DNA from: Cenococcum geophilum
Lineage: Eukaryota
NCBI GenBank assembly: GCA_050273025.1
Contig: CP158635.1
Location: 2,604,001 to 2,668,000 of the forward strand
Direction of reading: 5' to 3'
DNA: 64,000 nucleotides
The translations under genes and the position numbers were made by a program. This document shows, piece by piece, positions 1 to 58,100 of this stretch. Within the stretch, counting starts at the first letter, position 1, and each line of letters starts with the position of its first letter. The notes under the pieces were generated by a model. That model saw nothing but the letters and a program-made list of their open reading frames with translations, was not told the DNA's origin and made no database searches.

Positions 1-3000
1 TAGAAGTAACTTTCCGCGTACCTATACTAGTATTAACTAACTTAATAGCCACTACTGGCTGTAAAAGGTTACAAAGCCGAATAGTATTATACTTACCTAT
101 AGCAGCACGTGTGCTATATAGCCAAATTATATTATTAAAGCCCGTAACCTTATTAGTAGATAGGCCCTGCTTATACCTAGTTAAAAGAAGCTTTTAGGTT
201 AAATTACTTATAGAATCACTATATAGCTCTATAAGGGCGGTCCTAAATATAGAGCTCTTAGCGTTATTACCACCCTGCCACATAACTTAATCTAGGATAG
301 CTGTTTAGTTAATTGCCTTATAGGCTTCCTTTCTATAGCTGGCTAGCTCTAACAGCCTAGCAGGTAAATTGCTGTATAAGGCCGCCTAACCTATAGGGGG
401 AAGCTAATAAAAATCGCCTACTAGTAAGATGTTTAAGCCTCTAAAGTAGTTATTGTTACGCGTAGGGTAGATTTAATAGAGGCGGTAATTAATCTAGGCT
501 AGATGTACTTGCCTAATTATAGATTTCTCGTTAAGGATAAGATAGTAAATATCCTTAAAAGCTTATTATAGAGGCGTAAGACTAGTAGTAGGCAATTTGT
601 TAAACGGATGGTTTACTAGCAACCTTAATAGATTATATATAGTTCTGCCGTTAATACTAAAGGTAGCTATCCTAGTAGGGGCAGCTCGAGCTAATAGCAA
701 TGGCTTGCTATTAGCCCTTACTATATTACAGAGTATAGTAGAGAGGACAGTAATAAAATGCAATTTACCGGTTCCTGCCTCTCCATTAACGTTAATCCGC
801 AGTAGAGGGGGGCCAAGGCCCACTTAAATCTGCCTATAGTAATTAACTATAGCGTTATAGATATAACACTAACCTAGTTATAAGGAGGACGGGGTTGCTA
901 TTTAGAATAGGCGGCTTAACAGTAGAGGCTGTAACCGTACTTCCTGCTAATAAGTCCTTTTATTAAGCTGCGGGTACGTACCCCAATATATACTCTAGTC
1001 GTAGTTATAATTAAGCTCCCTATTACTAAGCCTATTAGGATCCTTAATTTTAACTCTATTAGTATTTTAAACGCGGGTATATAGGGCCTTAAAGGACTAG
1101 TATAGCTCTAAGTTATCTGCGAAATCGCCCTTAAACTTATTAATATTATTAGCAGTTTCGCGACCTTCCTCTAGTTTCTAATTATAGAAGTAGTTAGGTG
1201 GGTGCTAATAAGAGTTAACGCAAGCCTAATAAGAAGCCATATAATTAGGGGCCCCGAATCTATTAGTATAAGTAGCCACTTCCTTATACTCCCTCTATAG
1301 GTAATAAAGAATAAGCTTTATACGGTAGAACTTAGAATACTATAGATAGGAACGATCGCCGTTATATCGCGGAAAGTATGATATAACTTAAGGCCTTACT
1401 CTTAGCTAACGCTTATAAGCAGAGTAATTAAAATAGAGTAGAAAATTAAGGAAAGTAATGTCCTCTACCCTATCTAGACGGCGCTTATATTTCTTATAGT
1501 TAGACAGCCCACACCCTCTTAATTGCCTATTATTAAGCTTATATATAGCGCTTTAATCGTCCTCCTAGTAGTAGTTTAAAGTTACTATATTCCTAGAGCC
1601 TTTGCAAAGGGGAATATTAAAAAGTAAATAGTATACCTCTTACGCTAACCAATTGCATTTAGTAATAAGTTTATTTATAAACCTAGCCACAACCAAACTA
1701 AAGGCATAAAGGCTATTGGCGTGCGGCTATACTAATTAGAGTAGCTCCTAGTAGGAAGTTAACTTCTTCTCTTCCTTACTGCAATATTTGCCTATATAGT
1801 TAACTATTATTAATACGCTTATAGCGGGTGATGTATTAATATTCGCCATCTACGCTAATATTATAGCTACGTTATAACTATTAAGAAGCTTATTATTACG
1901 CTATAGATAAAACGTCTAGTAATATGGATTTTAATCCTTTAATACAGCGGCCTTATTATAAAAAGAGCGTGGAAAATAGAAGCGGCACTCCTTTACTCTA
2001 GTGGAGCCTTTCTTTAATCTTAAGCAGTAAGATTTGGTGCAATTGCGGTGCTGTTAAAATTAATTAAGGTAGGTAGTAAGAAGCTTACTAGTATTAAGCT
2101 ATTCTTTATAGCTAAGAGCAGAAGGATATTAGAGATTGGGAGGCCTAGATTAATTAGGATTTATTATAGATATAAAAGTAGTCTAGTACTTAGTAAAAGC
2201 CGCCCTTAATTTACTAGCTAACGGATCTAGCCTTAGGGCTGTTAAACTCTATAAGAAGCTATATATATAGCCGCTACCTTATACCTACTACTTAAATTAG
2301 GACTAAAAGTTAGTGCTATTAAATAGACCTATAAGCACGTGCTTCCTAAATAGATTAAAGCGGTAATATAGCTAATAAGCAGCAATATGCGGATTATTAT
2401 TAAGATTTTAAGAAGTAATCTGGTAGCGCTAAGCCTTATTAGTAGCCTTATATTCGTTAAATAGAGGTATATAAGAGTATAGATTATACTAATGTAAATT
2501 AGTAGCGCTAAGTGTAAAGAATAGAGACCTGCTCTTAATATTCTTAGTATAAGCCGTAAGCTTATTTCTCTTCTGCCTCTAGTAAGGTCTAGTGCCCTTA
2601 AGGTTCCATATATGCTATACAATCTTATTTAGCAACTAGCTACCCCTATTGTTATTTATAAGATTACTAAGCTTATCTAAAGACAGACTATTTATATTTA
2701 ATTGGCTGTAGAGGAAGCGGGTAGCGTTAAGGGCTTACTCTCTTATAATCTAATTAAACACGTAGTAGCGAAATAAGGGGTGGCGGCCAAACCGACCGTC
2801 CTAATACTTAAGCATATGCTTGGCGTACGCAGCTAGGGTAACCGTACGGCTTTGTGGCATGTTAAAATCGGCTTTACCATAAGGAAATAGAGTAGGAAAG
2901 GCGCCGCGCATAATAAAACTAGCCAATTGCTTAGAGAGAGGTGTTTATCACATAGTAGGAACCTCTAGGCCCGCTTATAGGTCTTATTAGTATTAAACCT

Positions 3001-4231
3001 CGCAACCTAAAAGCTCTAATTTATTAAGGTTAGGAACTAAATTAGGAACCAAAGTATCTAGTACGTTATTATTAAATTCGCTATCTAGTATATTAGTGCT
3101 AAGCTTAGCAGGTAGAGGATTAATAGCAGGACGTTATATAGGAGCAGTAGGGTAAGCCGTTAGGCTACTAGAATTAGACTCTAACTTATTAATATAAGGT
3201 AGCTAATCTAATATAGAGCTATTTTTAGGTAAGCTGGTAAGCTAGGTGCTACATATTTTAACGTCGCGATAATTAGGATAATTAACCTTTAGAAAGTAAA
3301 GCTATAGTAATATAGCAGAGTGCCTTATAGTATACCGCTTAGTAAACCATTAACTTAGGTATTTGCTACCCTCTACTGCCGTAGGCCTTACGACTAGTAT
3401 ATTAAGTTTAGTAGGTAGCCGTAGTAGCTACCTTTAAGTCTTTAGTATATTCTGGCCAAAGTAGCAAACGTAACTAGTATAGCGATGTTACTGGCCACGT
3501 ATACGCATAACTTATAGATAAACGTATACGCGCGTAATTAGAAGCTTCTCCACCGCGATAAGTATAGGTAAGAAGCCAGGAACAGGCCCTAGATTAAGCT
3601 TATTACTTTTACCAAATAGGGAAGGAAGGGTTAAATATTTAAGTATATTGGCGTCCTTAATGCAGGCTTTGTATATACCTATATTATTACCCTCCGTAGC
3701 TAGGCCTATTTAGAACTACCACTCCTTATAACAACTGCACATCTCTATATATTTAGCCTGTAGTATACTCCTAAACTTCTTAATTCGCTCCTAATTAACA
3801 GCTAAAACGGGTAGTGGTGTAGCCGTAGTTAGAGCTTGCCGCGATAGAGCTTACTATAAGGGAGCTTGCCGTAAGGGAGCCTACCGTAAGGGAGCTTGCT
3901 ATAAGGGAGCCTACTATAAGGGAGCCTACTATAAGGGAGCCTGCTGTAAGGGAGCCTGCTATAAGGGAGCCTACTATAAGGGAGCTTACTGTAAGGAAGG
4001 TGGTATTAGTAGTAGAGTAGGTATTAAAGGTAGGGTAGGTATTGGCGGTAAAGTAGGTATAGGAGCTAGTTCTAATAAGGACGCATTTAGGCCATCTAAA
4101 GTGTCTCTTCTACTATATAGAGCTTTATCTATAGTATATAGCGGAGGAGTAGGTAAGTAAGCTTTACCCCACTAATTAAAAATACGGTGCTCCCGTTATA
4201 TTACCCTAATTGTTTTCCGTCGTTAAGCCAT
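1..4231 (-). pseudogene. Helitron Rep-helicase (RepHel) pseudogene with many RIP-derived stops
   Basis: Candidate ATG at 4231-4229. Domain order is Zn/DUF6570-like, then Rep HUH, then PIF1 helicase. In-frame TAA/TAG codons fall where CAA/CGA/TGG/CAG are expected. Confidence 0.8.
3832..3995. repeat. 15-bp tandem repeat (AGGGAGCCTACTATA-like) inside the Helitron ORF
   Basis: About 10 imperfect copies. On the minus strand it de-RIPs to a pentapeptide repeat of the LQQAP/LRQAP type. Confidence 0.85.
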
Positions 4232-5855
4232 TTTAGGGGTATTTTAACTATTCTGGCCGTAAGGCAGGAAGGCGTTCTCAGTATTGTTTTTAGGTGGAGT
4301 AGTTTACTAGCGCCTTACAGGATAATTCTTAGTAGTAGAACCTAACTCTATAAAAGCTCTTCGCTTATTTAAACTATATTTAGAGGCCTAGAAAAGTAAG
4401 TAGAAGTAGAAGTAATATATAGGGAAGACGCGCCTTTAACTAATATAACTGGCACAGCTTTAAAATCTTCTTTAAAGGGCCGTCTTTGATAAAGTTAAGG
4501 CGGGGCTTATAGATATAGCACTTGCTACACTTAATTACAGTAGGATCTGCCATATTTATAATATATATATTAGTATTAATAAAGGTATTAATAAAAAGGA
4601 AGGCGTAATACTACCTTGGTAGGATATTTTAATATTCATAATATTTTAATATTCGTCACGTGGATTCTGCCACAACTTACCGCACGCAACTTTTTTTCTA
4701 ACCAATGAGAAGCCGGCTTTCTAACCAATCAGAAGCTGGCTTGGCGGGAGTTTAAATTCCAGGACCCCCCAACCCGAATATATAGACCACTCGTACCTCG
4801 GGTCAATAACTACACTGGAGCTCCGTGGCGCTCCTGGCTTCAAATTGAATATTTGGTGGATGGAGTGGACCTGGCTTCAAATCCGCTCCACTCCGATCCA
4901 AATAGATCACTGCACAGAAATGGGGATGTACCGTAAAACACCTAGAGTATCGATATATTCTCCGAATGAAATTTCAAGTTAGCGAAGTTGTGAAACGCTT
5001 CGTATACGCTATTAAGGTGTACGTATATTTCTTGATATCTTAGCTATGACGTCATGAGCGGCTTTAGATGATAGAGAAATTAAGACAAACTCCCCGGTAT
5101 CACCCATTCCGGAGCGCTTCTAAGGCTTACGGAGTACTTCATCCCAAACCCACACAGCTCTCCGGGAACTAATTTAATGGTCCCTAACATGCATATTAGC
5201 CAGATCTGGTGCCCGTACTCAGGAATATAAAGCTTTTGATTTCATAGCAAATTGATATAAAAGCTTAATCTTCATCTACTCGCCCAAACGGGTTAAGGGA
5301 TAATCCCGACAGATCAGGATAACACTGTTGATGCTGTAGTAAGATATGAATGAATCGGAGGCGAAGCAGATGTAGATAGAAGGCGCAAGTCTTAATCGGA
5401 GCTAGCCACTCTAGTCCACAAAAGGCTGTGAACTCTAATTCCTAGGAAAACATTCTGAAATCACAACATCACGGAACTCTATAAATAGTGACCCTAATAA
5501 TCCTTGAAACGCTTCTCCAAGCGGAGAGCTGCGAGGCAGTGGTTGCATACAGATATGACATGTACTTGAATATGCGCGACTTCAAAATTGCAAATCGAAC
5601 TGAAAATTACTGGGAAAAACATGACCATTTCTTTTACAAACGTAAAACCAACAGAAAAGTAAATAAAAGGAACACCATTCGCCGCCTCCAGTGCCCCAAG
5701 TCTAAGTACATAAAAGAGAATGCCGAAAGAATGAACATGCAAGAATAAAAGTCCGCTCCGCCATGATTCGCTTAGATGTCCGTGGTCGCGTAATTAGACT
5801 TCAGCCTCACTTCATCTCACCACAACACCACTGCGCCTAGCTCACTGCACCTAGC

Positions 5856-8777: not shown

Positions 8778-10412
8778 TTATTTGCGGAAAGACACCCTGG
8801 CCGGCATGGAGTCTTTTGGCTTGGCCGTAACATGCAGAGTCTGATACATGCGCTCACCCTCCATCTCTGGTCCGGGGTGCTCATAGGCTGCAGTGATGTC
8901 GAATTTTCGCAGAACCATGACCAGGAGAACCTTGGTTTGGATCAGTGCCATGGCTTCACCAACGCAGAACCGTGGCCCTTTCTCAAACGGACGCCAGGCG
9001 TTCTTTGGTACTGCCAAAGGATGGCCGTCAGGTACAAGGAAGCGCTCTGGCTTGAAGGCCAGAGGCTCGGGGAACACCTCCTCACTGCGCATAATCGCGT
9101 AGTCATTGACGTAGCATGCGAATGGGTAGGTGGGGTAGGTGTTGCCATTGTGTGAAACAGGGTGTCTGCGATATCAAATTAGTTTCCAAGCAGAAACGCG
9201 GACGTTGAAATAAGCTTACTCTTTGCTACCAAATCGGTAGGATCCGGCTATCGGTGGCCATTTGCGGAGAGTCTCCTTGATGACGGCTAGGGTGTAATCC
9301 ATCTTGTTCAAAAGAGCAGGGTTGGCCTTGATGATGTCCGCAGCCTTGTCGATATCCGTGCCAAGAATCTCATCGTGCTCAGCACGGACCTTCGCAAGGA
9401 TTTCAGGGTGACGGCTGAGCTCGTGGAAAACGTAGCAGACGGTGTTTGCAGAGGAGTCGTGGCCTGCGAAAATGACGGACTTGATCTGGCTGGTCATCAT
9501 CTCTAAGAATTGCGGGCTGATGCCTGTGACTTTTCCATCGCCGTTCTGCTCGTTGAATGCCTCGAGTGCGAGATCGACGAAGTGATGCTTCTTGACCTTC
9601 TTGCCATCAGGAGTGACAGCTTCTGGCTTATTGATACGGTCCTGAACGATCTGAACGATGAGGTTGTTGATTCTCTTGGTATTCCGGGCGCGAAGCCAGC
9701 GGCGGTAGGGGTTGGGGTCTGGCAGATAACGGGCCAAGAGCGCAACAGGCTGGAGATCAGCCTGCATGCGGATTCCTGCAGTGAGCGGGTGGTCTTCAGT
9801 CTGTGCCTTGCAGTCAATGTCTAGCGCGACGCGGCACATGATATTGATAATGACACGTGCAACGTGCTCCTCCATGGGGAAGACATCTCCCTTCTTAGCG
9901 TGCTCCTCCAGGATTCCGGCGAAGATGCAGGCGTCATTCACGATGTTGGGGATGTGTTGCTGTAGGGCGGATGTTGCGAAACCTGGGTTGAGCACGCGAC
10001 GGACCATCTTCCATTCGGCGCCATTGAGAGCGACTACCGATTTCTTGCCAACAAGCGGCTCCATGAATTTGGAGATCATGGCACCCTTATCGAAGTTCTT
10101 GACTTGAGTGATGTAGGCAGCAATTTCGGGGTCACAGCAAACGAGTTGGGACTCGGTCAACGGCCACAGATCAAGGTAGAAAAACTCGCCGAGCCTGTAT
10201 TCTTTCCTGATGTAGTGGGCGTATGCCTGAGGATTTGCATCTGGTGGCAGAGAAGCAGCGATTTTACCCATGATGGGCAGGTGGCCGAAAAGCCAGTGGT
10301 GAGGAGGACCGGGCAGGTTCCTGAACATGCGTCGGTGTGTCATAAGTTTGTAAAAGAACATGGCCGCCAGGGCCACCGAAGCGGCGGCCGCGATGTAAAG
10401 TTTGATGCCCAT
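8778..10412 (-). CDS. Cytochrome P450 monooxygenase, StcS/VerA(AflN)-like, 526 aa
   Basis: Exons 10412-9220 and 9165-8778 with a 54-bp GTAAGC..CAG intron; the spliced frame is continuous. Motifs: N-terminal TM anchor plus PGPP, I-helix FAGHDSS, K-helix ETLR, PERF, and heme loop WRPFEKGPRFCVG. Confidence 0.95.
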
Positions 10413-11299: not shown

Positions 11300-11870
11300 G
11301 AGGATGAACCCTTCCACTGACCTGGATCCACAGAGTATGAGTAACCTCCTGGCAAGCAGGACTTCTTGGATAATCCATATTCTGCCCCAATAGTCTGTGT
11401 AAAAGCTCCTTTATGGCTTGCTTGACGTGTGGCAGGAAGACCTGATCGAAGTTAGCGGCATAGCAATAATACCCCTGGGCCTGTCCCAGCCCAAGGCCTC
11501 GGCCATCCCCATCGCATCTGCGGGACGGAACTTGAAGCCAACCGCGGTACCGGGCGTTAAGCTCTTCTGCAGTGCGCAAAGCTAGCAGTCCATTGAGGAA
11601 ATCTATCGCTAAGTCGCTGTGATCGGCTGATTCTCCAAGCTAAACAAGAACACATTTTGTCGAGGCGTATATTTTCTGCACGATCTTGACCTGGTCATTC
11701 CATTCATCAATGTCGCGCTGGTTGATACAGATTGCATCAACCTAGAAGGTCTCGGTCGTTTCTTGCCGAGCGAGGCTAGCCTAGAAAGGAGCCGGAGCAA
11801 ATTATGTCACGGTGGAACGCAGTGTATGGTGGTGTGGACTCGATATGGATGGAGTCTGTACAGCGTAGAA
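11300..11870 (-). pseudogene. HET (heterokaryon incompatibility) domain pseudogene
   Basis: The minus strand reads PPYTA.., F*VDAICINQRDIDEWNDQVKIVQKIYASTKCVLV*LGE and, after a frameshift, DYWGRIWIIQEVLLARRLLILCG. These are the canonical HET motifs. Two conserved Trp codons are now TAG (11744-11742 and 11642-11640). Confidence 0.88.
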
Positions 11871-13382
11871 ATAAGCGGCCGATATTGGCACGTGCGCAAC
11901 CACTAAAAATCGGCCATTTTTGAAGATATATTACTACTCTAATACTTTGTCATTTGCCCATTACGTCTCTTACAATCGTGTAGACGCTTTGGAGGCATTT
12001 CATCGTAGAACGGTAAAGATATTCAGTAAATAAGAAGGTAAACAATCGTCGATTTTTGCAAGCGCGGCTGAAGACAAAGTTGGGCCCTCACGTGAGAGCG
12101 AGCGGGGTCGAGCATCGAACTCGTAATGGTCAGAGTCATCAACATGGCGCCACGAAAGAAACTTTTGCCGCCCGGCGAGAAGGCAGAATTGCACATCGTG
12201 TAAAACGCAGTTGGTTGAAGCCCGGGTCCTGGTAAGTTTGCTACGTCCCGACTCTCATGCTCCAGCTGACTTACACCTTCCAGTGTGACTACCAGATGCA
12301 CAAACCGTCGACACGCTGAAACAAGCTATTGCTCATCATCCCATTCTGTGCCCGCACCAACCGGTTCGGCCAGATGTGGCTTTCGCAGACACCTACCGCG
12401 AACGCACGACGTCTCTAGCCTTGGCCTCCGACACTCCGTCCGACGATATGGCCTGGCCTTGATACAGATTCGTGAAAAGGTCTGTGATATAAGGCCCGCC
12501 AACTGGCATGAAATTGGAAGCCGTCCCTACGATATTGTGGAGATGGCGAAGGGAAGATTGTGGAAGATGGCGGAGGAAAATTGGACTAGGAAGGGAGACT
12601 GATACGGCCACACGCGCCACTCTGGTCCAGCTGTGGCTGACAGAACCCCTTGGCGCGAAGACGGGCTCCCTCAGCTTGCGCCGGGCCTCGTCGTCAGCGA
12701 CCAGCCAGGAGTGGACTTTGAGAGCGATGGCCCCCCCTTATTGACGCCCCCCCATTGTCGAACCAGAAGTTGAAGCGATGGGGCCCATGTGCTTAAAGGG
12801 CAGCTTACTATGGTGGGTCGCTCAATTTGACCCGGTTTTGTTGAAAGTGACTGAATTGAGCACGGCTGATTATAGACTGAATTACTGAATCACTGTTAAG
12901 TCCTGTCTCTCACTGGCCAAATCTCCCCTGTCTAATGTTGGGGGGGGCTTTGAATATTCCTTCACAATTGATATGACAACAGGCGCACTGACTGAACCTT
13001 CAGGCCCACACAACGACATCACGTCCGCGCACCGAGTGATCTACTCTCTGCTGTTAAATACACCACAAGCTAAAACGCTCACTAACCTCGGTTTAAACTC
13101 ATTCCTTTGCTCTATTGCTTCAACACACATCCAGTACCACCGGTGCTAATGCTAAGACCTCTAAGCCCGCCTAGCGAAAGGGAAATTAAAGAGGACATTG
13201 GGATCTAGATTATATGCAAGTGTTGGTATATGGAGTTCGCGGTTACGATGGTAATTGAAGTTTTATTTTCACGACTTGTAAGACATGTCCCACATTTTGG
13301 TGATATATTGTGTCTGCTTGAGGATCTCGAACAGACCTTGTAAGCGAAATTTCGCGGCTTAACCAGAGAAACATATCCCCCA

Positions 13383-15601
13383 TCACTGGTCCGCCAACGC
13401 AGACAGAGCCTTCATACGATTCTGAGCAAGCATCGTCAGGCGATCCATGCCGATCTTTTCGGTACCCTTAAGGCTCAGGAGGTGTGCACTCTTGATGAGG
13501 TTCTTGATCTCGCGGCCGTTGAGCTTGACCTCGGCTAACTCATCAAGGTCGCCGTCGGATACGGTAAACTTGTCACGCCCGGCGCGGTTAATGAAATTCT
13601 CCCACACCTGGCGCCGTGCGGCGACCGTCAGATTCGCGTATGGCAGGAAGAGGTCGACACGAGACTGGAAAGCGTGGTCGAGGGCCGACATGCGGTTCGT
13701 AGTGAGGAAGCAAATGCCTTGGTAGTACTCGAGCTTGGTGAGGAAGACTTGGGTAATGTTGTTAAATACCTACTTCTCGTTGGAGGGGTGGAGAACTCCA
13801 TCACTTACCAGCAACAAGCTCGTTTCTCGCGAGATCGACGTTGGTACGGGCACCGAGGAAGACATCCGCCTCATCGAGAAGCAGCATGGCGTTCCACAGC
13901 TTGCACAGATCAAGAGCCCGGTCGAGAGCCGCTTCGACTTCCTTAGGCCGGGTTCCGAGCGTGCCCGCACTTATGGCGTAAAGTGGGACGCGAGCTCGTT
14001 CAGCAACTAAATGAGAGCTTAGTCAATACTATTCATGCATTTTAGTCGTAGTAAAGCCTACCTGCTTCGGCAGTGTACGTCTTGCCAACACCAGGCGGAC
14101 CAAACATCAGGATAATGATGCCGCGGCCTAGGGCGAGTCAGAGGACGGGATAAAACATGTTGAAGCGACTGCGGCCTACCTTTATCCTGGACGAAGTCGT
14201 CAAACTGGTTGCTAGCCAGAGCCTTGTTCTCGACAAATGCCCAGGCGAGCTCCTTCTCCCTACCAGGAAGGACCAGATGGTTGAAGGCAGAGTCGTTCCA
14301 CACAATTGGGGAAAGATCGCTGACGCAGAATTGAGCTATTCACTGTATCAGCAAAAAGGGGGTACTGCCATTAGGTAATTCAAAGCGTTAAATTCGTACC
14401 CCATTCTTTGGTCTTAAGGTCTAGTCCCCTTAGCCACGGAGTTGCAAGAAGACACTGATCATCGGTGAGACTGCCAAGGACTTCGCAGCGAGCTATAGCT
14501 TTGTTCAGAGACTTGGCTGCTGTCATATCCGTGCTGTCTGCCACGGGCGCGTCGCAATCACTGTCTTCGCCGGATGAAGAACTGTTTCCGCTTGAGGGGT
14601 CACCTTGGGCATCGTCCTCTTCTGGGGGTACCAGTTGTCGCAGCTGAGGCTTCACCATGTTTTCAGTTTGGTAATAGCCATAGGCATCTACGATGACTCT
14701 GCCTGCCACCTGCGATGTTGATCTTGTCAGTATGAGTCGATCTGGCTAGGTCAAGCAGGAGTATTACCGGCCGCTCCTCTGGCTTAGTCCCCAGGAGGAT
14801 CTTAGTTCCAACACAAGTCTGGAAATGATACCCACGGAGGGTCTCAAATTTGCGCCCTCGCTCGATAATCCGGGTTCTGATCTCCGCTGCCGATTCGTTG
14901 AAGGAAAGTGGGTAGACTGGAAGGGACACGACGTGACGCAGGCCTCCAAAATACCCGATGGTGACCCTGGTGCTGGTATATCCGCAGCATTCACCGTTCC
15001 AGTCGACATACTCTAGGCTGATAACCCAGTGCGGAGATTCACGCACCTTCTCATACTTGGTAACGCGGCAGACGGCCTCAACGCCGTAGAAGGTGGTTAC
15101 CGCGAATTCACCAGGAGGAAAGATCTGCCAGACATCATCGAAGACGACCTTCCCGGTCCGCTTGGTGCGGGCCAAGGCATCCACAGAAGAAGCAAGGATG
15201 GGACGGAGAAATTCCATCATCTGGTCAATAGCCTCCTTGCTCGATGCCTCGGTCGCCTCCTCGCAAAGCGCGTTGAGACGATCCCAGCGGTGTAAGATAG
15301 GCTTGAATGGGGACTTGAAGGCCCACTTCTCCAACTCTAGGTCGAAATCCTGGTACTTGGCGAGAGCGACCTTGAGATGGGCTCTCATAGCTGGACTCTG
15401 GATAGTGAACGATTCGGTGACCCATTTCCGATTGGTGAAGATGTGTCGGTGGAGGATTGGATCATCGGTGGTGCTGCTCTTGAAATACTTTTGCTCCTCT
15501 TCGTGGTCGGCGAATTTCGACCATCGTTTGCAACACTTGTCGTGCCTGAAGAGCTTTGTGACGGGATTCATTGCTGGCGCTGGAGCAGTCCTCTTGGCCA
15601 T
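13383..15601 (-). CDS. Fungal AAA+ ATPase with an N-terminal DUF7025-like region, 642 aa
   Basis: Six exons (15601-14768, 14709-14400, 14335-14180, 14127-14062, 14006-13809, 13747-13383) with GT-AG introns give an open 1929-nt CDS. Motifs: Walker A GPPGVGKT, Walker B LLLDEAD, sensor FLTTNR, AFQSR and LNGREIKN. Confidence 0.93.
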
Positions 15602-15905
15602 TGTTGTTCTTTGTGTTTGGGGACTTCTTTAAGGTGTTTCGGGACGGGTTGGTAGTATTCTCAAAGGATATTTTAAGAGGGGAATATGGTTTGCCGTCGT
15701 TTAGGTAAACACAAATTTTTTTTTTTAGTGCCCCACAGTTCCACAATGAGGCGATGTCTGCCTAGTTGTCTGCCTGTATTGGTATGCATTGCTGGCTGCC
15801 TTAGCCCCCTTTGATCTTTTGGCCGCCCAAGGTTTCACCTAATACAGTTCCCTCGCTTCTCGACAGGAATTCTTAGTGCGCTGAGCAAATGTGGTTAAGC
15901 GTTAG

Positions 15906-16135
15906 GCCTGTGAGTCACTGAACTGGAGCATACACCTCGGGGAGTATTGCCGGGTGGAAGATGTCATCAGGAAAATCAAGGATTTCAACCCGGACCCAGT
16001 CATTTTTGGCAGACATCCATGGGACAAAGCCTTCGAAAGGGCCTTCCGAGGCAGTTTTCGAGAGTTAATGAGCATGCATCTTAGTTTCGGACCTGCCATT
16101 GGTTGCGCTGCCCGAATCTTCCAGGCGTTGGCCTA
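15906..16135 (+). pseudogene. Fragment of a fungal hypothetical-protein gene, cut at the AT-rich boundary
   Basis: GC-balanced open frame after a TTAG acceptor-like site (ACESLNWSIHLGEYCRVEDVIRK...GRHPWDKAFERAFRGSFRELM..FGPAIGCAARIFQALA). It ends abruptly where RIP-type sequence begins, and no 5' exon is evident. Confidence 0.55.
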
Positions 16136-16614
16136 TGTTATAGTAAAAAATTAAACTTAATAATAAACTTAATTTAATTTTACTACCTGTAATTAGGGTT
16201 TTAGTATTAGAGCGTCCAAATTCGGATAGTTTAGACGCTGCTTTTAAAGGCTCTAACACTACGTCGAACCCCGTAACCCCTGCCACCCTGGCGTGTTACC
16301 CCTATTACCGCCCTTACTCCCCCAGTTACTACCTTACCTATAAAACCTACTATATTAGAATACTGCGGCCATTAAAGCGCTTACTCTTTGGGTCCTTAAA
16401 GGTTAACCAGCACTATAGAGAAAGGGTATAAATACTTACGTTAGCCTCTTACCTAACCTACCTCTTCTTTATTTACCGCTATTTACGACTTACCTATCTC
16501 TATTTTAATACCGTAACTCTCTTAACCTAAACTATAGACCTCTTTTCTTATTTTATTCTTTTAGCGTATATCTTTACTCCTCTATTTTATACGCTCTAAT
16601 TACTTTCTACTACT

Positions 16615-16861
16615 TGTCAATCGGTAGTCCGTGCGTCGATTGTAAGAAAAGAATAAGAACTCTATTTATTAAATATGGCTCTAGAGCCTCTATATATATA
16701 TAAGAAAGGTATAGGAAATAGGAAAGACAAGGGGGGTAGGGAGTGGTAATGGAAATAAGGAGTAGGTGACTAAGTTAAGACGGGGTAGGTGACCGAGTCA
16801 ATGACTACGTCAATGGGTAGGTAGCTAAGTCGGTGACAAGATAATCTGATTTAGGTCGACA
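16615..16861. mobile_element. Solo LTR (247 bp)
   Basis: TGTCAA...TCGACA termini with 5-bp TSD CTACT on both sides (16610-16614, 16862-16866) and internal GGGTAGGTGACxxAGT repeats. Confidence 0.85.
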
Positions 16862-17019
16862 CTACTCCTTAACTACTTTATTACTCTTCTGTCGCCGTTT
16901 TATTTATAATTACCATACTCCTTCTATCTATAGCCCTATGTTATTCTATCGCCCTTCTCTACTTCCTTTTTATCCTCACTCTTTTTCTAATATATTATTA
17001 CCTATAGTTAGGCCTATAT

Positions 17020-18330
17020 AATAATAATATAAGTTTAAAGAAAGTAACCCTAATAAAAGAGGGTTAAGTACGTAGGCGATTATTATAAAAATCTTAGTAA
17101 AAGGCTAATACTATAAGGTCTAGTTAAAGTAGAGCCTATAGATACTACTATAACTAATATAGGCATAGTATAGAGGAAATTAAAGCTATAAGTTAAGTAT
17201 TTATTATCCTATAAATTCTACTTATTAGCGATTAGGTATTATAAAGAGATTAACTAAAGTCCTACTAACTTTTTAAAATCTTTAATAGCACGAGATTATA
17301 TAGCGTTCTTTTAATAGGTTTTAGATTACTTCCCTTATATATATAGAAGAAATTTAGTCTCTACTAGTACTAGAGAGTATTTAAGCTACTATTTAAAGAA
17401 TATATAAATAGCTTAATAGAAGAAGACGTAATAAAGGATATTAATAACGTATAGATTTCCTCTATAAAGACTAAAAGCGTTTTTACTAATATAAGTACTA
17501 TAGTATATTAAAATCCTAAGGAAGGGATATAATTTTAATATATTAATATAGGGTAAACTAGTATTATTAATTAACGGCCTTCTTTAAGTATTATACTACT
17601 ACTAGGTATTTAATACCTAGGTATATACTAATAAGGAATAGCGGATACTCCTTACTCTACTATTACTATTTACCGCCTATATAGGGTCTTAGCTATACTC
17701 GCTAGTTAACGCGGCTATAAAGAAGGTCAATAAGGTTATAGGAAGTAATATAGAAGAGGCTAGCCCTTATAACGATATTAATAGGCTTAATAATAGATAT
17801 AAAAGTGCGTATGTAAATAATAGTAAGGATAATAAGGACGAATTCTCTTTTACGGCCGTAGATACGACTAAGTTAAAATTAATACTCTACTAGGATATTA
17901 CGATACTTATAGTACGAGTTAGAGATTATATAGTACTAGCTATATTTATTATAATAATCTACGGAAAGGGAGAGGATTAAAAGCCTTAACTATAGGTATC
18001 CCTATTTCACTTTCCTTTTATTTATAGAAAAACGTATAAAATATATTAAAGTTATAACCCTTTTCTTTATCCTATAGCCCTTATAGTTACTATAGGACTT
18101 TATAATAATACCTTCACTATTTTAAATATATAAGACCCTAAATAGATTTTACGTACTTAGGTACCTGCTTAAAAACCGTATAGAATCTTTAGATAGAAGG
18201 AGAGGAAATTAAATAAACCTATATTTCGCGAACTAGAATATTATAAAGGCTAAACTTTTACGTCTAAAAAGAGCTTTATATCCCTACGCGCTAAAACTTT
18301 TTATCGTTATATAAAGTAACTAGGATATAA
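17020..18330 (+). pseudogene. DUF3435 tyrosine recombinase (Starship captain family), RIP-inactivated and truncated by an LTR insertion
   Basis: De-RIPed plus-strand translation across three short introns gives KSSLHQYWRVFK, YI..L...Y..D....KPVL, L.YHWVFDT..Y..EEQR.LLAL.LLF.AYTGSRP.SLV (~17590-17705), an acidic insert, LYQDI....VR, (H)GKGED.KP (~17960), LCP.AL..A.GL.D.AF, PIFR and Y.KRLG. The sequence stops at the 18331 LTR, before the C-terminal catalytic motifs. Confidence 0.85.
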
Positions 18331-18628
18331 TATTAGTCTTAAATAGCTATTATTATGGCGCTAGTGGAAACTAGTGGATTATAGCTAGTAGATATTAGTA
18401 GATTATAGCGGATAGTCGCAGACAGTTTTATATAGTTTTAGATAGTTTTAGATAGTTTTAAACAATTACCGTTATGTAACTAGAGGATTGTATATAATAT
18501 TAAACGGCGCCGCCCTCCGCTTCCCTTCCTTTCTTTAGCTTTAGATCTTTGTTTATAGACAATCCAATTATATAGGCTTGCGCGACCTATTTGCCGTACT
18601 CGTGCCTTAATTAACTAAGTTGCTAATA
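18331..18628 (+). repeat. Putative 5' LTR of Gypsy H (~298 bp)
   Basis: TATTAG...CTAATA termini (RIPed TGTTAG...CTAACA). It starts exactly where the DUF3435 frame stops and has internal GATAGTTTTA repeats. The partner LTR is not in the window. Confidence 0.6.
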
Positions 18629-20939
18629 TTATCTAAAGCTTATCTACTTTTCTTCCTAAGAAGGAACTTAAATATATTTATAGAACTATAAATAAGAACA
18701 GAATATAAAAATAGACTTAAAGACTATTACCAGAACTTAAAGAATAGAATAGAACTAGAAGAATAGAAAAGAATATTAAGATTTATAGAATATGTATAGA
18801 CTAGAACTCCTATAAAATCCTACTAAAAGTTGCCCTAACGACTATACCATTATACTAAGAAATACTGTGGCTAGTAAAGCAGCTATAGGACCTTTAAATA
18901 CCTCTAACAATAAAACAGCAACTAACTTAAACTTTTAGGTAGAGCTTATAGCAGCTAATGCTAAAAATTAAATAACTTTAAGAGCTACTTAAAGCTAGAG
19001 AACCCTCTATACCTAGTAAAGAGTTATTAAACACCTAAAGACTTACTATAGTCCTTAAAACCCTAGCCTAATATATAGTATTAATATCGTTACAGTCTGT
19101 AAAGGTTATAAACCCTCTATTACTTATAGATAGAACCGACCTTATATTTAATAATTAGAAGCTTTAATTATAGGATAAGCTTAAAGTTAATACGGACTAC
19201 TTCCTTACTACTTAGGCTAAAATAGCCTACGTTTTCGGCCGTACTGGCGGGGATATATAGACGTACCTACGTCCGCGATATGTATAGGACTTAGTAGATC
19301 CCTTCCCCTCTAAAGAAAAGATAATTATTTACTTATCTTCTATCTATAAGGACCTCTTTAAAGTATAAAATGCCTAACTTAATTATAAAAGCCTAAATAT
19401 AAAAATAATAGAGACCTTTTTAGCCTTTTAGACCCACTTTCTATACCTAGCTAACTAGGTTTAAATTCCCTAAAAAGATCTAATGCTAGACCTATTTAAT
19501 AAGCTTACCCTAAACCTATAGCGAGCCGTACTACTAGTTTTTACTACTATATAGACGCTAAAGGAACTTATAGACTAGTGCTTGGCTATTAACTAAGGCC
19601 TCTGCTAAATTAAGGTACGCGCTAAATAGTATAAAGCTAGAAACCTATTAAATTAGACTATAAGTAATATAAGAACGGCTTGTAATACCCTAGCATAATT
19701 AGTAACCCCTATAGCACTACCTACATAGCCTACCGCTAATTTAGTAGCTAGCTATATAGCTAGTCCTACTGTAGGTCTGGCGAATGCTTGGCCTATATAT
19801 AGTAACCCCTATATATAGGCCCTTAGCGATTAAGGTGCTTACTTCTTTTATGGTTAGAAAGGCTACTATATAAAGAATTACCTAATAAATATAAAGGCGG
19901 ATAAGGTCCTATTAATCTAGAAGGATAGTATAGAATTAGAAAAAGAGGAACTTTAGAGGAAAACTCCTCTTTAGGGTTAAAAGGGATTAATATATTATAT
20001 ATTAATCTAGGTAAGCTAATTAGTAGAAGAAGCTGCACTATCCCTTATACTTTATTTTGTAATAGATATTAAGTTTTAACCTCTATTTTAGCTAACTCTA
20101 AAGTAAATGCCTTTACCTTAATAGATACCTAATATACCGTAAAGCTGGCTAACTTTTTAAATATACCTATTAAAGAACTACCTAAACTAATTTCTATTCG
20201 CGGGTATAATAGACGGATAGGGCTACCTATTATAACTCTCTTATAAATTTACCTCCGCGTTAATAGATGAAGGTAGTATAATATCCCCTTTATTATAGAC
20301 CTAGGAAGTTATAATATAATCTTAGAAAGAAAATGGCTAGCCTATTTAGGCTTATAGCTTAATATATAGAGTAGGCGGCTTATCTAGCCTAAAACTTTAC
20401 CCCTAACCCCTTCTTTTATAAAAGAAATTAGTATTATAATAGAAAACCTTATATAGCCCTAGATTAATACTATTTACTAGGTAGATACTATGCGTAGAGA
20501 TAAGACCTTTAAGAAAGATATATAGCTTAACCCATAACGGATCTATATACTACGCCGCCCCTAAACTAGTTATATATACTAAAGACCTAAAAAGCTAGTA
20601 GTAACCTAGCTAAGTTAACTATAGAGAACTTAGGCCCTATATAGCTATAAAGGAAAGCTAGGAATATTAGACGCTATACTAAACTAATAGATAAGAAAAA
20701 TACCTTATGGAAAATAGAACGTAAGCTAAGGAAGACTATAAACTATATACCGTAAAATATAACTTAATAGATATCTATAAAGAAACTAGCGGACCTTCTA
20801 CTAGTTAATATCTGCTATATTAGTGCCGTAGGATTCTACTAGAACTTAGTTTAGCCTAATACTATTACCTTTATAACTAGCTTATACAAAATTAATTAAA
20901 TAATTAAGGAAAAGGAAAGCGAACTTAGTAGATAAAAAA

Positions 20940-21333
20940 TGTAACGAAGCCTTGTAGGAAATACTACGGTAGACTTACTAATAGGCTGGGTATATAGAAA
21001 ATAATAAGTTAAAAACATAATAACTAGTAGAGTGGTTGCCTAATAGATTAACTACAAAGAAGAGAACTATCTAGGTAGGGATTGTGGTCCTTTAAATATA
21101 TAATACTGTGCCTAAGAAATGTACTAAGTACGTTAGTACATTAGTACGTTAGTATATTACGTTTTTATGTTTTTATGTTCTTATATTCTAAACTTATAAT
21201 ATAACCGCCCACGTAACTTAGCTACCCCTTATTTTATAGTTTAACTAGTTCTAGCACCTCTTATGCTTTTACTACTAGTCCATTTATATCTCTCCTTAAT
21301 AGTGCTACTACTATTAATATAAGGTCCGTAATA
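20940..21333 (-). repeat. 3' LTR of Gypsy B
   Basis: TGTAACGAAGCC...CCGTAATA; aligns with 44564-44897 plus 50189-50252. Confidence 0.9.
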
Positions 21334-53561: not shown

Positions 53562-53880
53562 TCTACCTATTTACCTATTGACTTACCTACCTGCCTGCAT
53601 CGCCTACCTGTCTGCATTGCCTACCTATCTGCATTGCCTACCTGTCTACATCGCCTACCTGTTTGCATCTGCCTACCTGTCTATATCTGCCTACCCGTCA
53701 GCATCTACCTACCTGTCTGCATCTACCTACCTATCTGCATTTGCTTGCCTATCTGCATCTACTTACCTATCTGCATCTGCCTGCCTATCTATATCTACTT
53801 ACCTGTCTGCATCTACCTACCTATCTATATCTACCTACCCGTCAGCATCTACCTGTTTGTGCCTACCTGTCTGTGCTACC
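53562..53880. repeat. Minisatellite 1, ~18-bp unit (ATCTACCTACCTGTCTGC-like)
   Basis: Directly visible tandem array. Confidence 0.9.
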
Positions 53881-53924
53881 TTGATTCGATTAATCGATCG
53901 AATCGTTTATAGTGTTCGCTGGCT

Positions 53925-54457
53925 AGTCGTTGTCGTCTGGCTCTGGCGACAGTCGTCTGGTTCTGGCGATAGTCGTCTGGTTCTGGCGACGGTTGTCTGG
54001 TTCTGGTAACGGTCGTCTGGCTCTGGTAACGGTCGTCTGGTTCTAGCGACGGTCGTCTGGTTCTAGCGACGGTCATCTAGTTCTGGCGACGGTTGTCTGG
54101 CTCTGGCGACGGTCGTCTGGTTTTGGCGACATTCGTCTAACTCTGGAGACGGTTGTCTGGTTCTGGCGACGGTCGTCTGGCTCTAGTGACGGTCGTCTGG
54201 CTCTGGCGACGGTCGTCTGGTTCTGGTAACGGTTGTCTGGTTCTGGCGACGGTCGTTTGGTTCTAGCGACAGTTGTCTGGCTCTGGCGATAGTCGTCTAG
54301 CTCTGACGACGGTTGTTTGGTTCTAGCGACGGTCGTCTGGCTCTGGCGACGGTCGTCTGGTTCTGGTAACGGTCGTCTGGTTCTGGTAACGGTCGTCTGG
54401 TTCTGGCGACGGTCGTCTGGTTTTAGCGATAGTCATCTAGTTCTAGCAACGGTCCTC
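53925..54457. repeat. Minisatellite 2, 20-bp unit (GACGGTCGTCTGGTTCTGGC), about 26 copies
   Basis: Directly visible tandem array without unique spacers. Confidence 0.92.
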
Positions 54458-54584
54458 TGCTGGCTGCCGTTCTAGTGCCTCCCTAGGTAGGGAGGATGTA
54501 AGGAAGGAAGGAAGGGTAAAAAATAAGGCGGCTACATAGGCAGAGACACGTGTAGACGCTATCGGGAATATAGCGGGGACCCGA

Positions 54585-55108
54585 TGCAGAGCTTCGTGTA
54601 GAGCCTCCGTACGCAGAGCTTCGCGCAGAGCCTTGTGCAGAGCCTCTGTACGTAGAGCTTCGTATAGAGCTTCGTGTAGAGCTTCGCGCAGAGCCTCGTG
54701 CAGAGCTTCGTGTAGAGCCTCCGTACGCAGAGCTTCGCGCAGAGCCTCGTGCAGAGCTTCGTGCAGAGCTTCGTGCAGAGCTTCGTGCAGAGCCTCCGTA
54801 CGCAGAGCCTCGCGCAGAGCCTCGTGCAGAGCCTCTGTACGTAGAGCTTCGTGCAGAGCTTCGTGCAGAGCCTCCGTACGCAGAGCCTCGCGCAGAGCCT
54901 CGCGCAGAGCCTCGTGCAGAGCCTCTACGTAGAGCTTCGTGCAGAGCTTCGTGCAGAGCTTCGTGCAGAGCTTCGTGCAGAGCTTCGTGCAGAGCTTCGT
55001 GCAGAGCTTCGTGCAGAGCCTCTGTACGTAGAGCTTCGTGTAGAGCTTCGTGTAGAGCTTCGTGTAGAGCTTCGTGTAGAGCTTCGTGTAGAGCCTTATG
55101 CAGAGCCT
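54585..55108. repeat. Minisatellite 3, 12-bp unit (GCAGAGCTTCGT) with interspersed 14-bp variants (GCAGAGCCTCCGTA)
   Basis: Directly visible tandem array. Confidence 0.92.
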
Positions 55109-58100
55109 CTAAGTAATAAAACTGTGTAAAAATTTATTTGCGTAATTAGTATATAACTTTACCTTAATTGCATGTCAAGGAATATACAGTTAGCTTTTAA
55201 AGTTGTTAAATAGGTTAACTGCGTGTTAAGGAATATATAGTTAGCTATTAAGTAGGTCAACTGCGTGTTAAGGAATATATAGTTAGCTTTTAAAGTTGTT
55301 AAATAGGTCAACTGCGTGTTATTTGACTTTTGGATGTGTCAAATTGGTCAATTGCGTGTCAAGTTGGTCAATTGCGTGTCGAGTTGGTTAAATTGCATGT
55401 CAATTACGCGAAACGCGAAAACCAAAGTCTACTTGAATCTCATCCTGCGAATATTTTCCCGATGAAGCTATATAAGGTAACTATTAATTAGGATAACCTT
55501 AAGCTTCTATTTACTACCTCCCGTTATAAGCAGAAGTGCCTTATAACTCGCTGCTTAGACCAAAACTAAAATTTAAAAAATCTACCACAATCTACTAGTC
55601 TAAAATTTCTATAACTGTTTACCTTATACCTAAGGAATCTACTAGATTCCACCAACCTAGGAATTTTACTAAATTCTACCGACGTAAGATTTCTACCAAT
55701 GCCCACTTTATGCCTAAGAATTCCACTGATATTCACTAAGGATCCAAAAACTCCACTAAATTCTATAAATTATTACTAAGCACTGCACCGCCCTAAGCTA
55801 AGTAAAAGCTTAAGCTCTATATACGAAAATACCAGAAGGACTAGTATTCTACTATAAAAAGAATTTTTAAAGAACCCGAACCTAAATCTAATACTAACTC
55901 CGTATCTAATACTAAACCTAAACCTAAATAAGAAACTATGGACAATCTAAGCAAGCTTAGCACCCTAGATATCTGTATAATTAAAGCTACCCCGCTAGCG
56001 TAACTTGCTAAGAAACCTAAGTATACAATCTTTACTGTTACAATAGCCGATATTAAGAAGGCCTTAGCACTAAAGAAGTATACTAACCCTGCCACGAAGG
56101 TACTAATAGAGTATTATTATTACCTAGATGCATTCTTATAAAAGGAAGCTAATAAGCTACTAAAACACCAACTATACGACTATAAGATTATACTTAAAGA
56201 AGGAAATCAGCCTGGATTTAGACCCTTATATAGGATATCCTAAAATAAACTCTAAGTGCTATAAAAGTATTTAGATAAAAACCTAAGTAAAGGATTTATT
56301 AGAGTAAGCTTATTGCCTATAGCCGTACTAGTAATCTTCGTTAAGAAACCTAGCGGCGGTCTACGCTTCTGTGTAGACTACTAAGCTCTTAACGCCGTTA
56401 CCGTTAAGAACTAATATCCGATCCCGTTAATATAAGAGACACTAAACTAACTAAGTAAGGCTCGTTACTACATAAAGCTCAATATTATCTCTATATTTAA
56501 CTATTTCCGCATTATAAAAGGGGATAAATAGCTCACTACATTTCGTACCCAATATAGACTATTTAAGTACTTAGTAACACCCTCTAGCCTTATAAACGCT
56601 CTAAGCTCGTTTTAACATTATATAAATAACACCCTACGCCCCTACCTAGACATCTTCTATACTACTTATATTAACGACATCCTAATATATAGTAATAACC
56701 TAACCAAACATTGGAAGCACGTTAATCTTATTTTATAAGCCCTACACGGAGCTAGTTTATAATTAGATATAGATAAATACAAATTCTATAAAACGGAAGT
56801 CCTATACCTTAGACTTCTTATTTCTATAAATAGTATACAAATAGACCCAAAGAAAGTTAAAGTAATTATAAACTGGCAAGAACCTAAGAATGTTAAGGAT
56901 ATAAGAGCCTTTATAGGATTTGCTAATTTCTACCAATAGTTTATTAATAACTTCTCCGCCCTAGTTTCACCCCTTATAGCTCTAACCTAAAAGGATAAAG
57001 TTTTTATCTTTAATAAGGAATATAAGAAGGCCTTTACCTATCTAAAGGTTATATTTACTACTGCGCCTATACTCTAATACTTTAACCTAAACCGAATAAG
57101 TGTTATAAAAGCCAACTTATCTAACTACGTTACTAGAGGCATCCTGTCTTAATATAACGAGGATGGAGTATTGCACCCTATAGTATACTTCTTAAAATAA
57201 CTAAGCTTAGCCGAATATAACTATGAGATCTACGATAAGGAATTATTAGCTATTATTAGATATTTTGAATAATGGCGACCTAAACTAGAAGGCGCTGGAT
57301 TTCCGATTAAGGTCCTTAGCGACTATAAGAACCTATAGTACTTTATAACCACAAAATAGCTAAGTTATCGTTAGGCCCGCTAGTTAGAATATCTGTCTTA
57401 TTTCTAATTCTTAATTATATACCGCCTAGGCGTCTAAGGCCAAAAGCCTAATGCCCTAACCCGACGCTCGTAAAACGCGCCAGCCCTAGAAGAAGCGCGC
57501 TCTTACTAAAATCAGACCCTACTTCACCGTAAATTATTTAACCCTCCCACTAAAGATCTTACGGTATACGTCCTTAAAATAACTAATCAATTAATTAAAT
57601 AGATTATAGTCGATAAATACCTAAATAATAAGTTTATCCAAAAAACGCTTAAGTTAATATAAGATAGCATTAGACGCTCTAAAAAGATTTCTTTAAGTAA
57701 ATGTAAAGCCTACGGAAACCGCTTATATTACCAGAACTATCTAGTTGTCCCTAATTATAATAAGCTTAAGCTTAAACTCCTTAAATACGTATATAATCTA
57801 CCTATCGCCGGCCACCCGGGCTAAGGAAAGACCCTAGAACTACTCTAACGGGAGTATTATTAGCCAAACATGTATAATATAACACGAAGGTACATCTCTA
57901 GCTACTATACCTACCAACGAGCTAAAGCCTCGCATAAGACGTATAACGGTCTTTTAAAGCCACTGCCTGTTCCAAACCAAAGATAAAAGGATATCTTAAT
58001 TAACTTTATTATTAACCTTCCTAAGAGTAGAGGCTATATAAATATTATAGTAGTTATAGACTAACTATCTAAAATAAGACACTTGATCGCCTGCCTTAAT

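Follow-up and report, generated by a model that had tools for sequence, protein, structure and literature searches.

The 64,000-nucleotide stretch of DNA analysed here (Cenococcum geophilum assembly GCA_050273025.1, contig CP158635.1, positions 2,604,001 to 2,668,000 of the forward strand; hereafter the window) contains a DUF3435 tyrosine-recombinase pseudogene at 17021-18355 on the plus strand, which has been destroyed by repeat-induced point mutation (RIP). The pseudogene lies within an element at 16180-18355 that is probably a dead copy, truncated at its 3' side, of a compact DNA transposon (~3.1-3.3 kb). This transposon would be multicopy and cargo-less, with a four-exon DUF3435 recombinase as its sole gene. 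DUF3435 recombinases are called captains when they stand at the 5' end of Starships, elements of 15,020-511,117 bp that are expected to be low in copy number (excerpts of PMC11162782). An earlier interpretation made from the letters alone (the sequence-only reading) had taken this locus for the left end of such a giant element, with a RIP-erased captain-type recombinase on the plus strand and cargo further to the right. The recombinase is confirmed by the results below, and the remainder of that interpretation requires revision.

The identity of the gene is established by comparison with its relatives. When the translation of window 17300-18340 was searched with phmmer in a set of 1.84 billion representative proteins, it gave 28 matches at E<=1e-3. 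Of these, 17 are at <=1e-10, and the E-values go down to 6e-45. The top full-length match is P0009 (E 8e-23). Pfam identifies DUF3435 in the full-length matches P0009, P0025 and P0021 with E 1e-70 to 1e-80 (E 9e-71 for P0009), and in all eight scanned matches of at least 200 aa; nothing was found in the ninth match scanned, the 111-aa fragment P0004. Two of the named relatives are hypothetical proteins of the ectomycorrhizal species Cenococcum geophilum. Several matches are short and near-identical (77-80% identity); therefore, further RIPped copies exist. With tblastn, aa 66-399 of P0009 map to 17261-18343 in a single frame across 1.1 kb, the frame in which 24 of the 28 relatives align as well. 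The window copy has 28 stops within 361 aligned codons. The residues facing these stops in the relatives are R, Q or W in 117 of 173 cases, which is the signature of RIP nonsense mutations, as expected from CGA, CAA/CAG and TGG codons. Neither in the window frame nor in the relatives or the sister copies described below does Pfam return any family other than DUF3435; no Crypton-type domain is among the results, and the remaining two plus-strand frames of the window stretch give zero Pfam matches. The ordered DUF3435 motifs that had been proposed are all present in frame with RIP changes: the window reads AYIGS*L (for AYTGSRP), YGKGED*KP (for HTKGEDRKP), LYP (for LCP), PIFRE and K*LG, with asterisks at stops. 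The de-RIPed motif SSLHQYWR occurs literally in L001, one of 14 sister loci that were found by searching metagenome contigs with protein P0005.

The sister copies also define the gene. They encode aa 8-740 of P0009 in four pieces, consistent with a four-exon gene, and all are pseudogenes. With X at stop codons, two of them exceed the Pfam gathering score of 25.8 bits for DUF3435 (L003 with 104.4 bits and L012 with 46.7 bits). In the window, exon 1 (17021-17448, plus strand) is placed by its match to the N-terminal parts of P0009 and P0020. Its start codon at 17021-17023 is now ATA, and the ATG survives at the aligned position only in L005. Exon 1 also has a 2-bp insertion at 17336-17337, private to the window copy in a comparison with eight copies, which results in a frameshift. 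Intron 1 (17449-17503, plus strand; 55 nt, GT..AG, TACTAAT branch site) is placed by a nine-copy alignment and by the change of frame in sister loci between the P0009 segments aa 13-125 and aa 124-304. Exon 2 (17504-17991, plus strand), assigned by motif reading and alignment to the relatives, contains box I and the HTKGEDRKP motif; the codon for the catalytic arginine of box I at 17690 is now TAG, and 13 of 16 relatives have R at this position. Intron 2 remains as a remnant at 17992-18027 (plus strand) in the alignment with sister copies. Its donor has changed from the family GTAAGT to ATAGGT, and it has a private 16-bp deletion after 18025. Exon 3 (18028-18355, plus strand) is recognised by the LCP, PIFRE and K*LG motifs, by the tblastn match to 18343 and by nucleotide homology to 18355. 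It is cut ~50 bp short of its end, near aa 400 of P0009. Past this break, exon 3 of the sister copies reads CAATTATATATCC, the next family intron follows aa 416 of P0009 and the fourth exon reaches aa 740. Against the three short introns of the sequence-only reading, two are verified by these alignments, and a further one near 17190-17225 is a candidate.

The damage leaves the catalytic R-K-H-R-H/W-Y set incomplete, since the box-I arginine is a stop and the RR/GH/FQFY region is missing. The half of P0009 with the RR..GH..FQFY residues (aa 400-747) has no tblastn match anywhere in the window, and the C-terminal half of the recombinase gives only noise at E>0.2 against 18301-19300, including a chance 'QFYI'. 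The RR..GH..FQFY half of the active site is present in L003, P0011 and P0020, and a zinc-finger-like C-terminal tail accompanies DUF3435 in P0009 and the sister copies. The window copy is without function at present and is a genomic fossil.

The composition of the locus changes sharply at 16136, as had been noted from the sequence. The TpA/ApT index jumps there from 0.71 to 1.5-2.4 and the (CpA+TpG)/(ApC+GpT) index drops from 1.26 to 0.07-0.56. RIP is indicated by a TpA/ApT index above ~0.89 and a (CpA+TpG)/(ApC+GpT) index below ~1.03. The coding part of the recombinase has values of 1.70 and 0.07, the latter being the lowest value observed. Set against the sister copies, the window copy has T at 167 of 362 inferred C sites and A at 142 of 334 inferred G sites, a change at ~45% of its C and G sites; the 309 transition-type changes compare with 63 columns that have other differences. 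By both the indices and the transitions, the window stretch is a RIP-mutated repeat. All 14 sister copies have the same RIP-type composition, with 12-48 stops each.

The element itself does not start at the compositional boundary. In an alignment of the 5' junctions of eight copies, similarity starts at TTAC (16180-16183 in the window) in seven and at TTTC in the eighth, L002. The sequence upstream is unrelated in all eight, which gives at least eight distinct 5' flanks. The alignment therefore places the element's 5' end at 16180, 44 bp right of the left end at 16136 in the sequence-only reading. BLAST matches of L007 and L009 that start at 16144-16147 are low-complexity AT matches. The 44 bp between the two positions (16136-16179) are an almost pure A+T spacer, which separates the GC-normal host DNA from the first base of the element; a preference for AT-rich targets, leakage of RIP and a scrap of an older repeat are all possible sources of it. 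AT-rich DNA also lies directly upstream in five of the seven sister copies that have upstream sequence. The TTAC may be the core of a direct repeat, as reported for Hephaestus-family Starships, or merely the first bases of the element. A host gene fragment was also said to be cut at 16136. This is not supported: Pfam finds nothing in the open reading frame concerned (15906-16154), and a search of longer proteins returned no homologue, the latter being weak evidence.

The leader between the 5' end and the start codon is ~590-600 bp long (16180 to 17021), leaving out an inserted long terminal repeat (LTR) that is described below. Counted from 16136 and with the 247-bp LTR subtracted it is 638 bp, in agreement with the ~630 bp given earlier. 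The first part of the leader (16180-16614, plus strand) begins with the TTAC and matches 11 loci by blastn with 72-89% identity; the second part (16862-17020, plus strand) has a private 9-bp deletion after 16972. With the 5' end at 16180 and the start at 17021 on the plus strand, the recombinase stands at the 5' end and reads inward, as proposed. A subterminal inverted repeat with two 17-nt arms and a 22-nt loop is located at 16203-16259 (plus strand), or +24 to +80 from the 5' end. It was detected by a repeat search in L001 (8812-8828 / 8851-8867, 88% complementary), and its columns are kept in the eight-copy alignment. It is a candidate recombinase-binding or promoter element.

The size of the family unit comes from the 3' side of the sister copies. 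The window matches the sister loci in two blocks only, ~16180-16614 and 16860-18355. All ten loci that pass the window break carry on through the recombinase gene, and six reach aa 740 or further. Homology between the copies then ends at L001 positions 11866, 11905, 11922, 11983, ~12007 and 12113. These six distinct end points, from the seven copies that reach this region, fall 50-300 bp beyond the stop codon. The sequences past the ends are unrelated apart from those of L002 and L006, which share theirs, and four loci have 4-8 kb of downstream sequence without any further match. Six independent ends within 250 bp and none in the preceding 3.1 kb, among seven copies, are not what random insertions into a long element would produce. 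We read the unit as ~3.1-3.3 kb long with the recombinase gene alone and no shared cargo, from which the window copy would have lost ~1.2-1.4 kb. The family is also not low-copy. Summed depth is 35-125 in the leader (16180-16614) and 15-119 in the recombinase gene, compared to 5-20 in single-copy host DNA (~3-20x), and the 14 loci and the window have eight distinct 5' flanks among them. The multicopy family expected from the heavy RIP is thereby confirmed, with no other copy of 15900-19200 in the window by self-BLAST.

Two observations on individual sister loci concern this 3' side. L002 has an isolated 92-bp fragment of the recombinase 3' end (4984-5075), which is less RIPped and lies 1.6 kb downstream of its main copy. 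A continuation of the element in L004 and L005 past a 6.3-kb insertion was considered and rejected; the piece shared by L004 (3206-3490) and L005 (18298-18582) starts a different repeat.

The window copy was altered by two later insertions. The first is a solo LTR of 247 bp with TG..CA ends at 16615-16861, flanked by a 5-bp target-site duplication CTACT (16610-16614 and 16862-16866). None of the 11 loci spanning the site has it, and in each of them the flanking parts of the leader are contiguous. Summed depth in the bin 16614-17014 is 715-4589. This is a genuine solo LTR of a repeated family, as the sequence-only reading had it, and it has no relatives inside the window (by self-BLAST and by a transition-tolerant scan, maximum 128 vs median 73). 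The second insertion cut off the 3' part of the element. Homology to nine copies ends at 18355 and divergence begins at 18356 with TGGCGC, the start of a very high-copy repeat at 18356-20923 (plus strand), which is placed by depth and by divergence from the sister copies. Summed depth is 3,800-37,600 per 400-bp bin across 18218-21024. The loss of the 3' part to a later insertion had been correctly proposed; the break with TATAA at 18330 had not, and lies instead 25 bp further right at 18355/18356 with a candidate 5-bp duplication TATTA (18351-18355, ancestrally TATCG). What was inserted is probably a Gypsy-type LTR retroelement, represented by its 5' part, with gag zinc-knuckle-like and protease-like motifs visible by eye. 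Pfam gives zero matches in six frames of 18344-20925, tblastx of 18356-20923 gives zero matches against the rest of the window and the sister loci, and there is no second LTR of this repeat in the window. The Gypsy element at 59.5-64 kb has its own protease and is therefore distinct from it. Rfam and tRNA scans of the whole window gave zero matches; therefore, neither 5S rDNA nor a tRNA was the target.

Parts of the stretch occur in 20 of the 24 sequencing runs listed, and four of these (X5, X9, X11 and X14), all with low coverage and short contigs, were compared with the window. Run X8 is a root metagenome in which the indexed contigs contain a fraction of 0.53 of the query's sampled words. 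The X9 contig at 15649-16244 and the X11 contig at 15418-16384 each run across both 16136 and 16180. In X14, two contigs abut (one to 16164 and one from 16157) but fall short of the 31-letter bridging rule, and the host DNA of this run differs at 131 of ~3,200 positions. X5 has no bridging contig among the rows listed; neither this absence nor the uncovered stretches of the runs are informative. Since the junction is bridged in X9 and X11, the insertion looks old and shared by at least two other sequenced isolates. A presence/absence polymorphism with an empty site at the junction was not found among the joints listed for the four runs.

Other explanations of the locus differ widely in probability. 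RIPped DNA translates to peptides rich in I, Y, L, K and N, and the raw plus-strand frame of the window (X for stops) scores only 16.1 bits for DUF3435 (E 0.0056), below the gathering score, as might be seen if the resemblance arose by chance from translating AT-rich RIPped DNA. However, the phmmer matches reach 6e-45, and 8e-23 for a full-length DUF3435 protein; one frame matches over 1.1 kb while the other two plus frames give none; and L003 and L012 exceed the Pfam threshold. The phmmer search, the Pfam scans of the relatives, tblastn and the sister-copy scores together rule out chance, which is left with practically no probability. We also consider it very improbable that the copies are no transposon and that a host DUF3435 gene family gave rise to them as scattered pseudogenes, through segmental duplication or passive carriage in other repeats. 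The lack of terminal inverted repeats (in a repeat search), of a verified flanking direct repeat and of an empty site would fit this explanation, as would the retroelement families that L001 and L005 have in common upstream and the downstream sequence common to L002 and L006. Segmental duplication does not predict eight copies with one exact 5' boundary and unrelated upstream sequence, however, and the retroelement matches upstream of L001 and L005 lie 0.9-3.6 kb off and are not collinear with the element.

The explanation closest to the sequence-only reading makes the relic the captain of a giant, cargo-carrying Starship and places it at the 5' tip, with the rest of the element and its cargo to the right of the window, past the nested retroelements. 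Such an element would also encode a DUF3435 recombinase as the first feature inside its 5' end, pointing inward, its 3' part could equally have been displaced by an insertion, and the boundary TTAC equals the core reported for the Hephaestus-family direct repeat (excerpts of PMC11162782). Captains of the same lineage may moreover differ in cargo, with a mean Jaccard of 13.4% within a navis according to the same excerpts. On the other side, all seven sister copies lose homology 50-300 bp after the stop codon (six end points) and only L002 and L006 share more. The copies occupy at least eight distinct insertion loci where a low copy number is expected, the smallest catalogued element in the excerpted part of PMC11162782 is 15,020 bp, the window to the right is for the most part explained by LTR pairs and Gypsy pol domains with no cargo visible, and no empty site was found among the joints listed for the four runs. 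We therefore consider a giant Starship unlikely, yet clearly less so than dispersed pseudogenes.

Several results also weigh against the compact transposon, in addition to the sub-threshold score of the raw frame. There is no empty site among the joints listed (15 of 69; four runs), and no intact copy of the family was seen among the 14 sister loci and the window. The 3' terminus is ragged, with six end points in 250 bp and the longest tail only in L001 and L004. The sister copies are from metagenome contigs that have LTR-retroelement families in common with the window (L001 and L005 are flanked upstream by LTR retroelements whose families also occur at 51-64 kb), and the same species is not proven. 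Some of the 14 loci may be one locus in different strains, such as L002 and L006, which share their downstream sequence. Later insertions into RIPped repeat DNA could in principle have cut a longer element, and the downstream DNA was scanned with Pfam in L001 only, where it gave a single DUF7104 match of 27.6 bits. Since neither an intact copy nor an empty site was seen, we infer the mobility and the autonomy of the family. The DUF7104 repeat match lies at L001 ~12457-12522, downstream of the sister copy. Further along the same contig (13.8-16.5 kb, plus strand), a gag zinc-knuckle and an aspartic-protease-like reading can be seen by eye, suggesting another retroelement.

The history of the compact transposon at this locus may have had four steps. 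Integration would have come first, through site-specific recombination by the tyrosine recombinase, and would have set the TTAC end beside AT-rich DNA ~0.55 kb upstream of a host AAA+ gene. As the family had many copies, RIP would then have mutated the element heavily, at the cost of both its start codon and the arginine codon of box I. The solo LTR would be what remains of a retroelement that had entered the leader, and finally the very high-copy repeat would have entered exon 3 and displaced the last 1.2-1.4 kb. It seems to us evenly balanced whether the family goes further and represents a 'captain-only' lineage within the Starship (DUF3435) superfamily. Its 3.3-kb element would then be autonomous and would have spread in the manner of an ordinary transposon, to at least eight and probably tens of copies, in a genome very rich in repeats and proficient in RIP. 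Such an element would need only the TTAC-bounded 5' end and the subterminal 17-nt inverted repeat.

The compact family has similarities to two known systems. Starships (Gluck-Thaler et al. 2022, Urquhart et al. 2023, Gluck-Thaler & Vogan 2024), found in Pezizomycotina, have a recombinase of the same family (PF11917), encoded at the 5' end and transcribed inward, and likewise lack long terminal repeats. Starships are characterised by short flanking direct repeats, in some cases by terminal inverted repeats, and by an empty site that can be demonstrated. The TTAC at the boundary is similar to the direct-repeat core of the Hephaestus family, and the zinc-finger-like C-terminal tail recalls Kirc, which combines DUF3435 with a zinc finger (excerpt of PMC8092012). 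RIP-killed Starship copies are already recognised as derelict or degraded in the excerpts of PMC11162782. The family differs from the catalogued Starships of 15-511 kb in its unit of ~3.1-3.3 kb without conserved cargo, and it occupies at least eight insertion loci where Starships are expected to be low-copy. Cryptons (CryptonF/CryptonA; Goodwin et al. 2003, Kojima & Jurka 2011) are also units of a few kb with a single intron-containing tyrosine-recombinase gene. They lack terminal inverted repeats, are multicopy and have short core motifs at their boundaries in place of a classical target-site duplication; the likeness is architectural only. The recombinase here matches DUF3435 and not the Crypton-type DUF3504 (CryptonA, excerpt of PMC13465315), and Starship recombinases form a superfamily separate from Cryptons in the available part of PMC11162782. 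DUF3435 repeats were first annotated as Cryptons and later renamed Starships, according to a partial source.

DUF3435 recombinases without a known cargo-mobilising element have been catalogued in Starship Family 11 (excerpts of PMC11162782) and among the unbounded genes of starfish; membership of the present family in either is a candidate assignment only. For Cenococcum geophilum, Table S8 of PMC11162782, in its excerpted form, has 37 entries for tyrosine-recombinase genes or fragments but 0 for bounded elements, and many of the species' entries in the excerpt of Table S3 are short (0.4-1.4 kb). Examples among the genes listed for the species belong to fam01, fam04 and fam05. The claim that standard annotation would miss such a gene is therefore only partly true, as starfish does list these 37. 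The telomere-to-telomere genome of C. geophilum consists of 78% transposable elements, 94% of which are RIP-affected (excerpt of PMC12910237). In a term search, the text of PMC12910237 had no 'tyrosine recombinase', 'Crypton' or 'DUF3435', and 'Starship' occurred in its reference list only. A limited literature search found no description of cargo-less or captain-only Starship elements, a weak sign that none has been described. Objects like the relic are thus already known, and the family's compact, multicopy design without cargo is a variant for which this limited search found no description.

The locus itself is one more RIP-killed DUF3435 gene in a type of genome with mostly RIPped repeats; the architecture of the family is the useful result and is mildly interesting. 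A DUF3435 match beside a compositional boundary is not sufficient for a Starship call. Starships are defined and sought as giant, low-copy and cargo-carrying elements, and the compact family departs from this on each point. It may explain part of the 'captains without elements', such as the 37 genes and 0 elements in C. geophilum, and it would offer a minimal substrate for the study of captain target choice and of the Crypton-to-Starship transition. If the captain-only lineage is real, it would be either a minimal or ancestral form that connects giant Starships with elements of Crypton size or else a Starship that has lost its cargo, and it would define the minimal cis requirements of captain-mediated transposition.

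The surroundings of the element are a GC-normal island on its left and retroelements on its right. The island (~5.0-16.1 kb) has AT-rich DNA on either side and contains Sulfotransfer_4, cytochrome P450 and DUF7025/AAA+ ATPase genes, all on the minus strand. The boundary at 16136 lies ~0.5 kb upstream of the start of the AAA+ gene. To the right of the element are the LTR pairs 20924/44550, 23088/31739, 35432/42184, 44898/50012 and 51260/59117, and Gypsy pol domains (RVP_2, RVT_1, RNase H and integrase zinc domain) at 59.5-64 kb.

The DUF7025/AAA+ gene (13383-15625, minus strand) has a phyletic pattern that is odd for a Dothideomycete host gene. Its matches are just 42-65% identical in 72 of 73 cases and are mostly from Sordariomycetes, including Pleurostoma, Diaporthe and many Fusarium; Glonium stellatum, a relative of Cenococcum, is at 58%. 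The top matches in the search with this open reading frame have 57-65% identity, none is from C. geophilum and none is near-identical. Within the same island, the 400-bp bin 11802-12202 of otherwise single-copy host DNA has a summed depth of 48-126, and X14 has strand-switch joints at 11903-12058, which points to a small dispersed or inverted repeat. At 53586-55120, within the retroelement bounded by 51260-51623/59117-59480, there are GC-rich (58%) minisatellites with 18-, 20- and 12/39-bp units.

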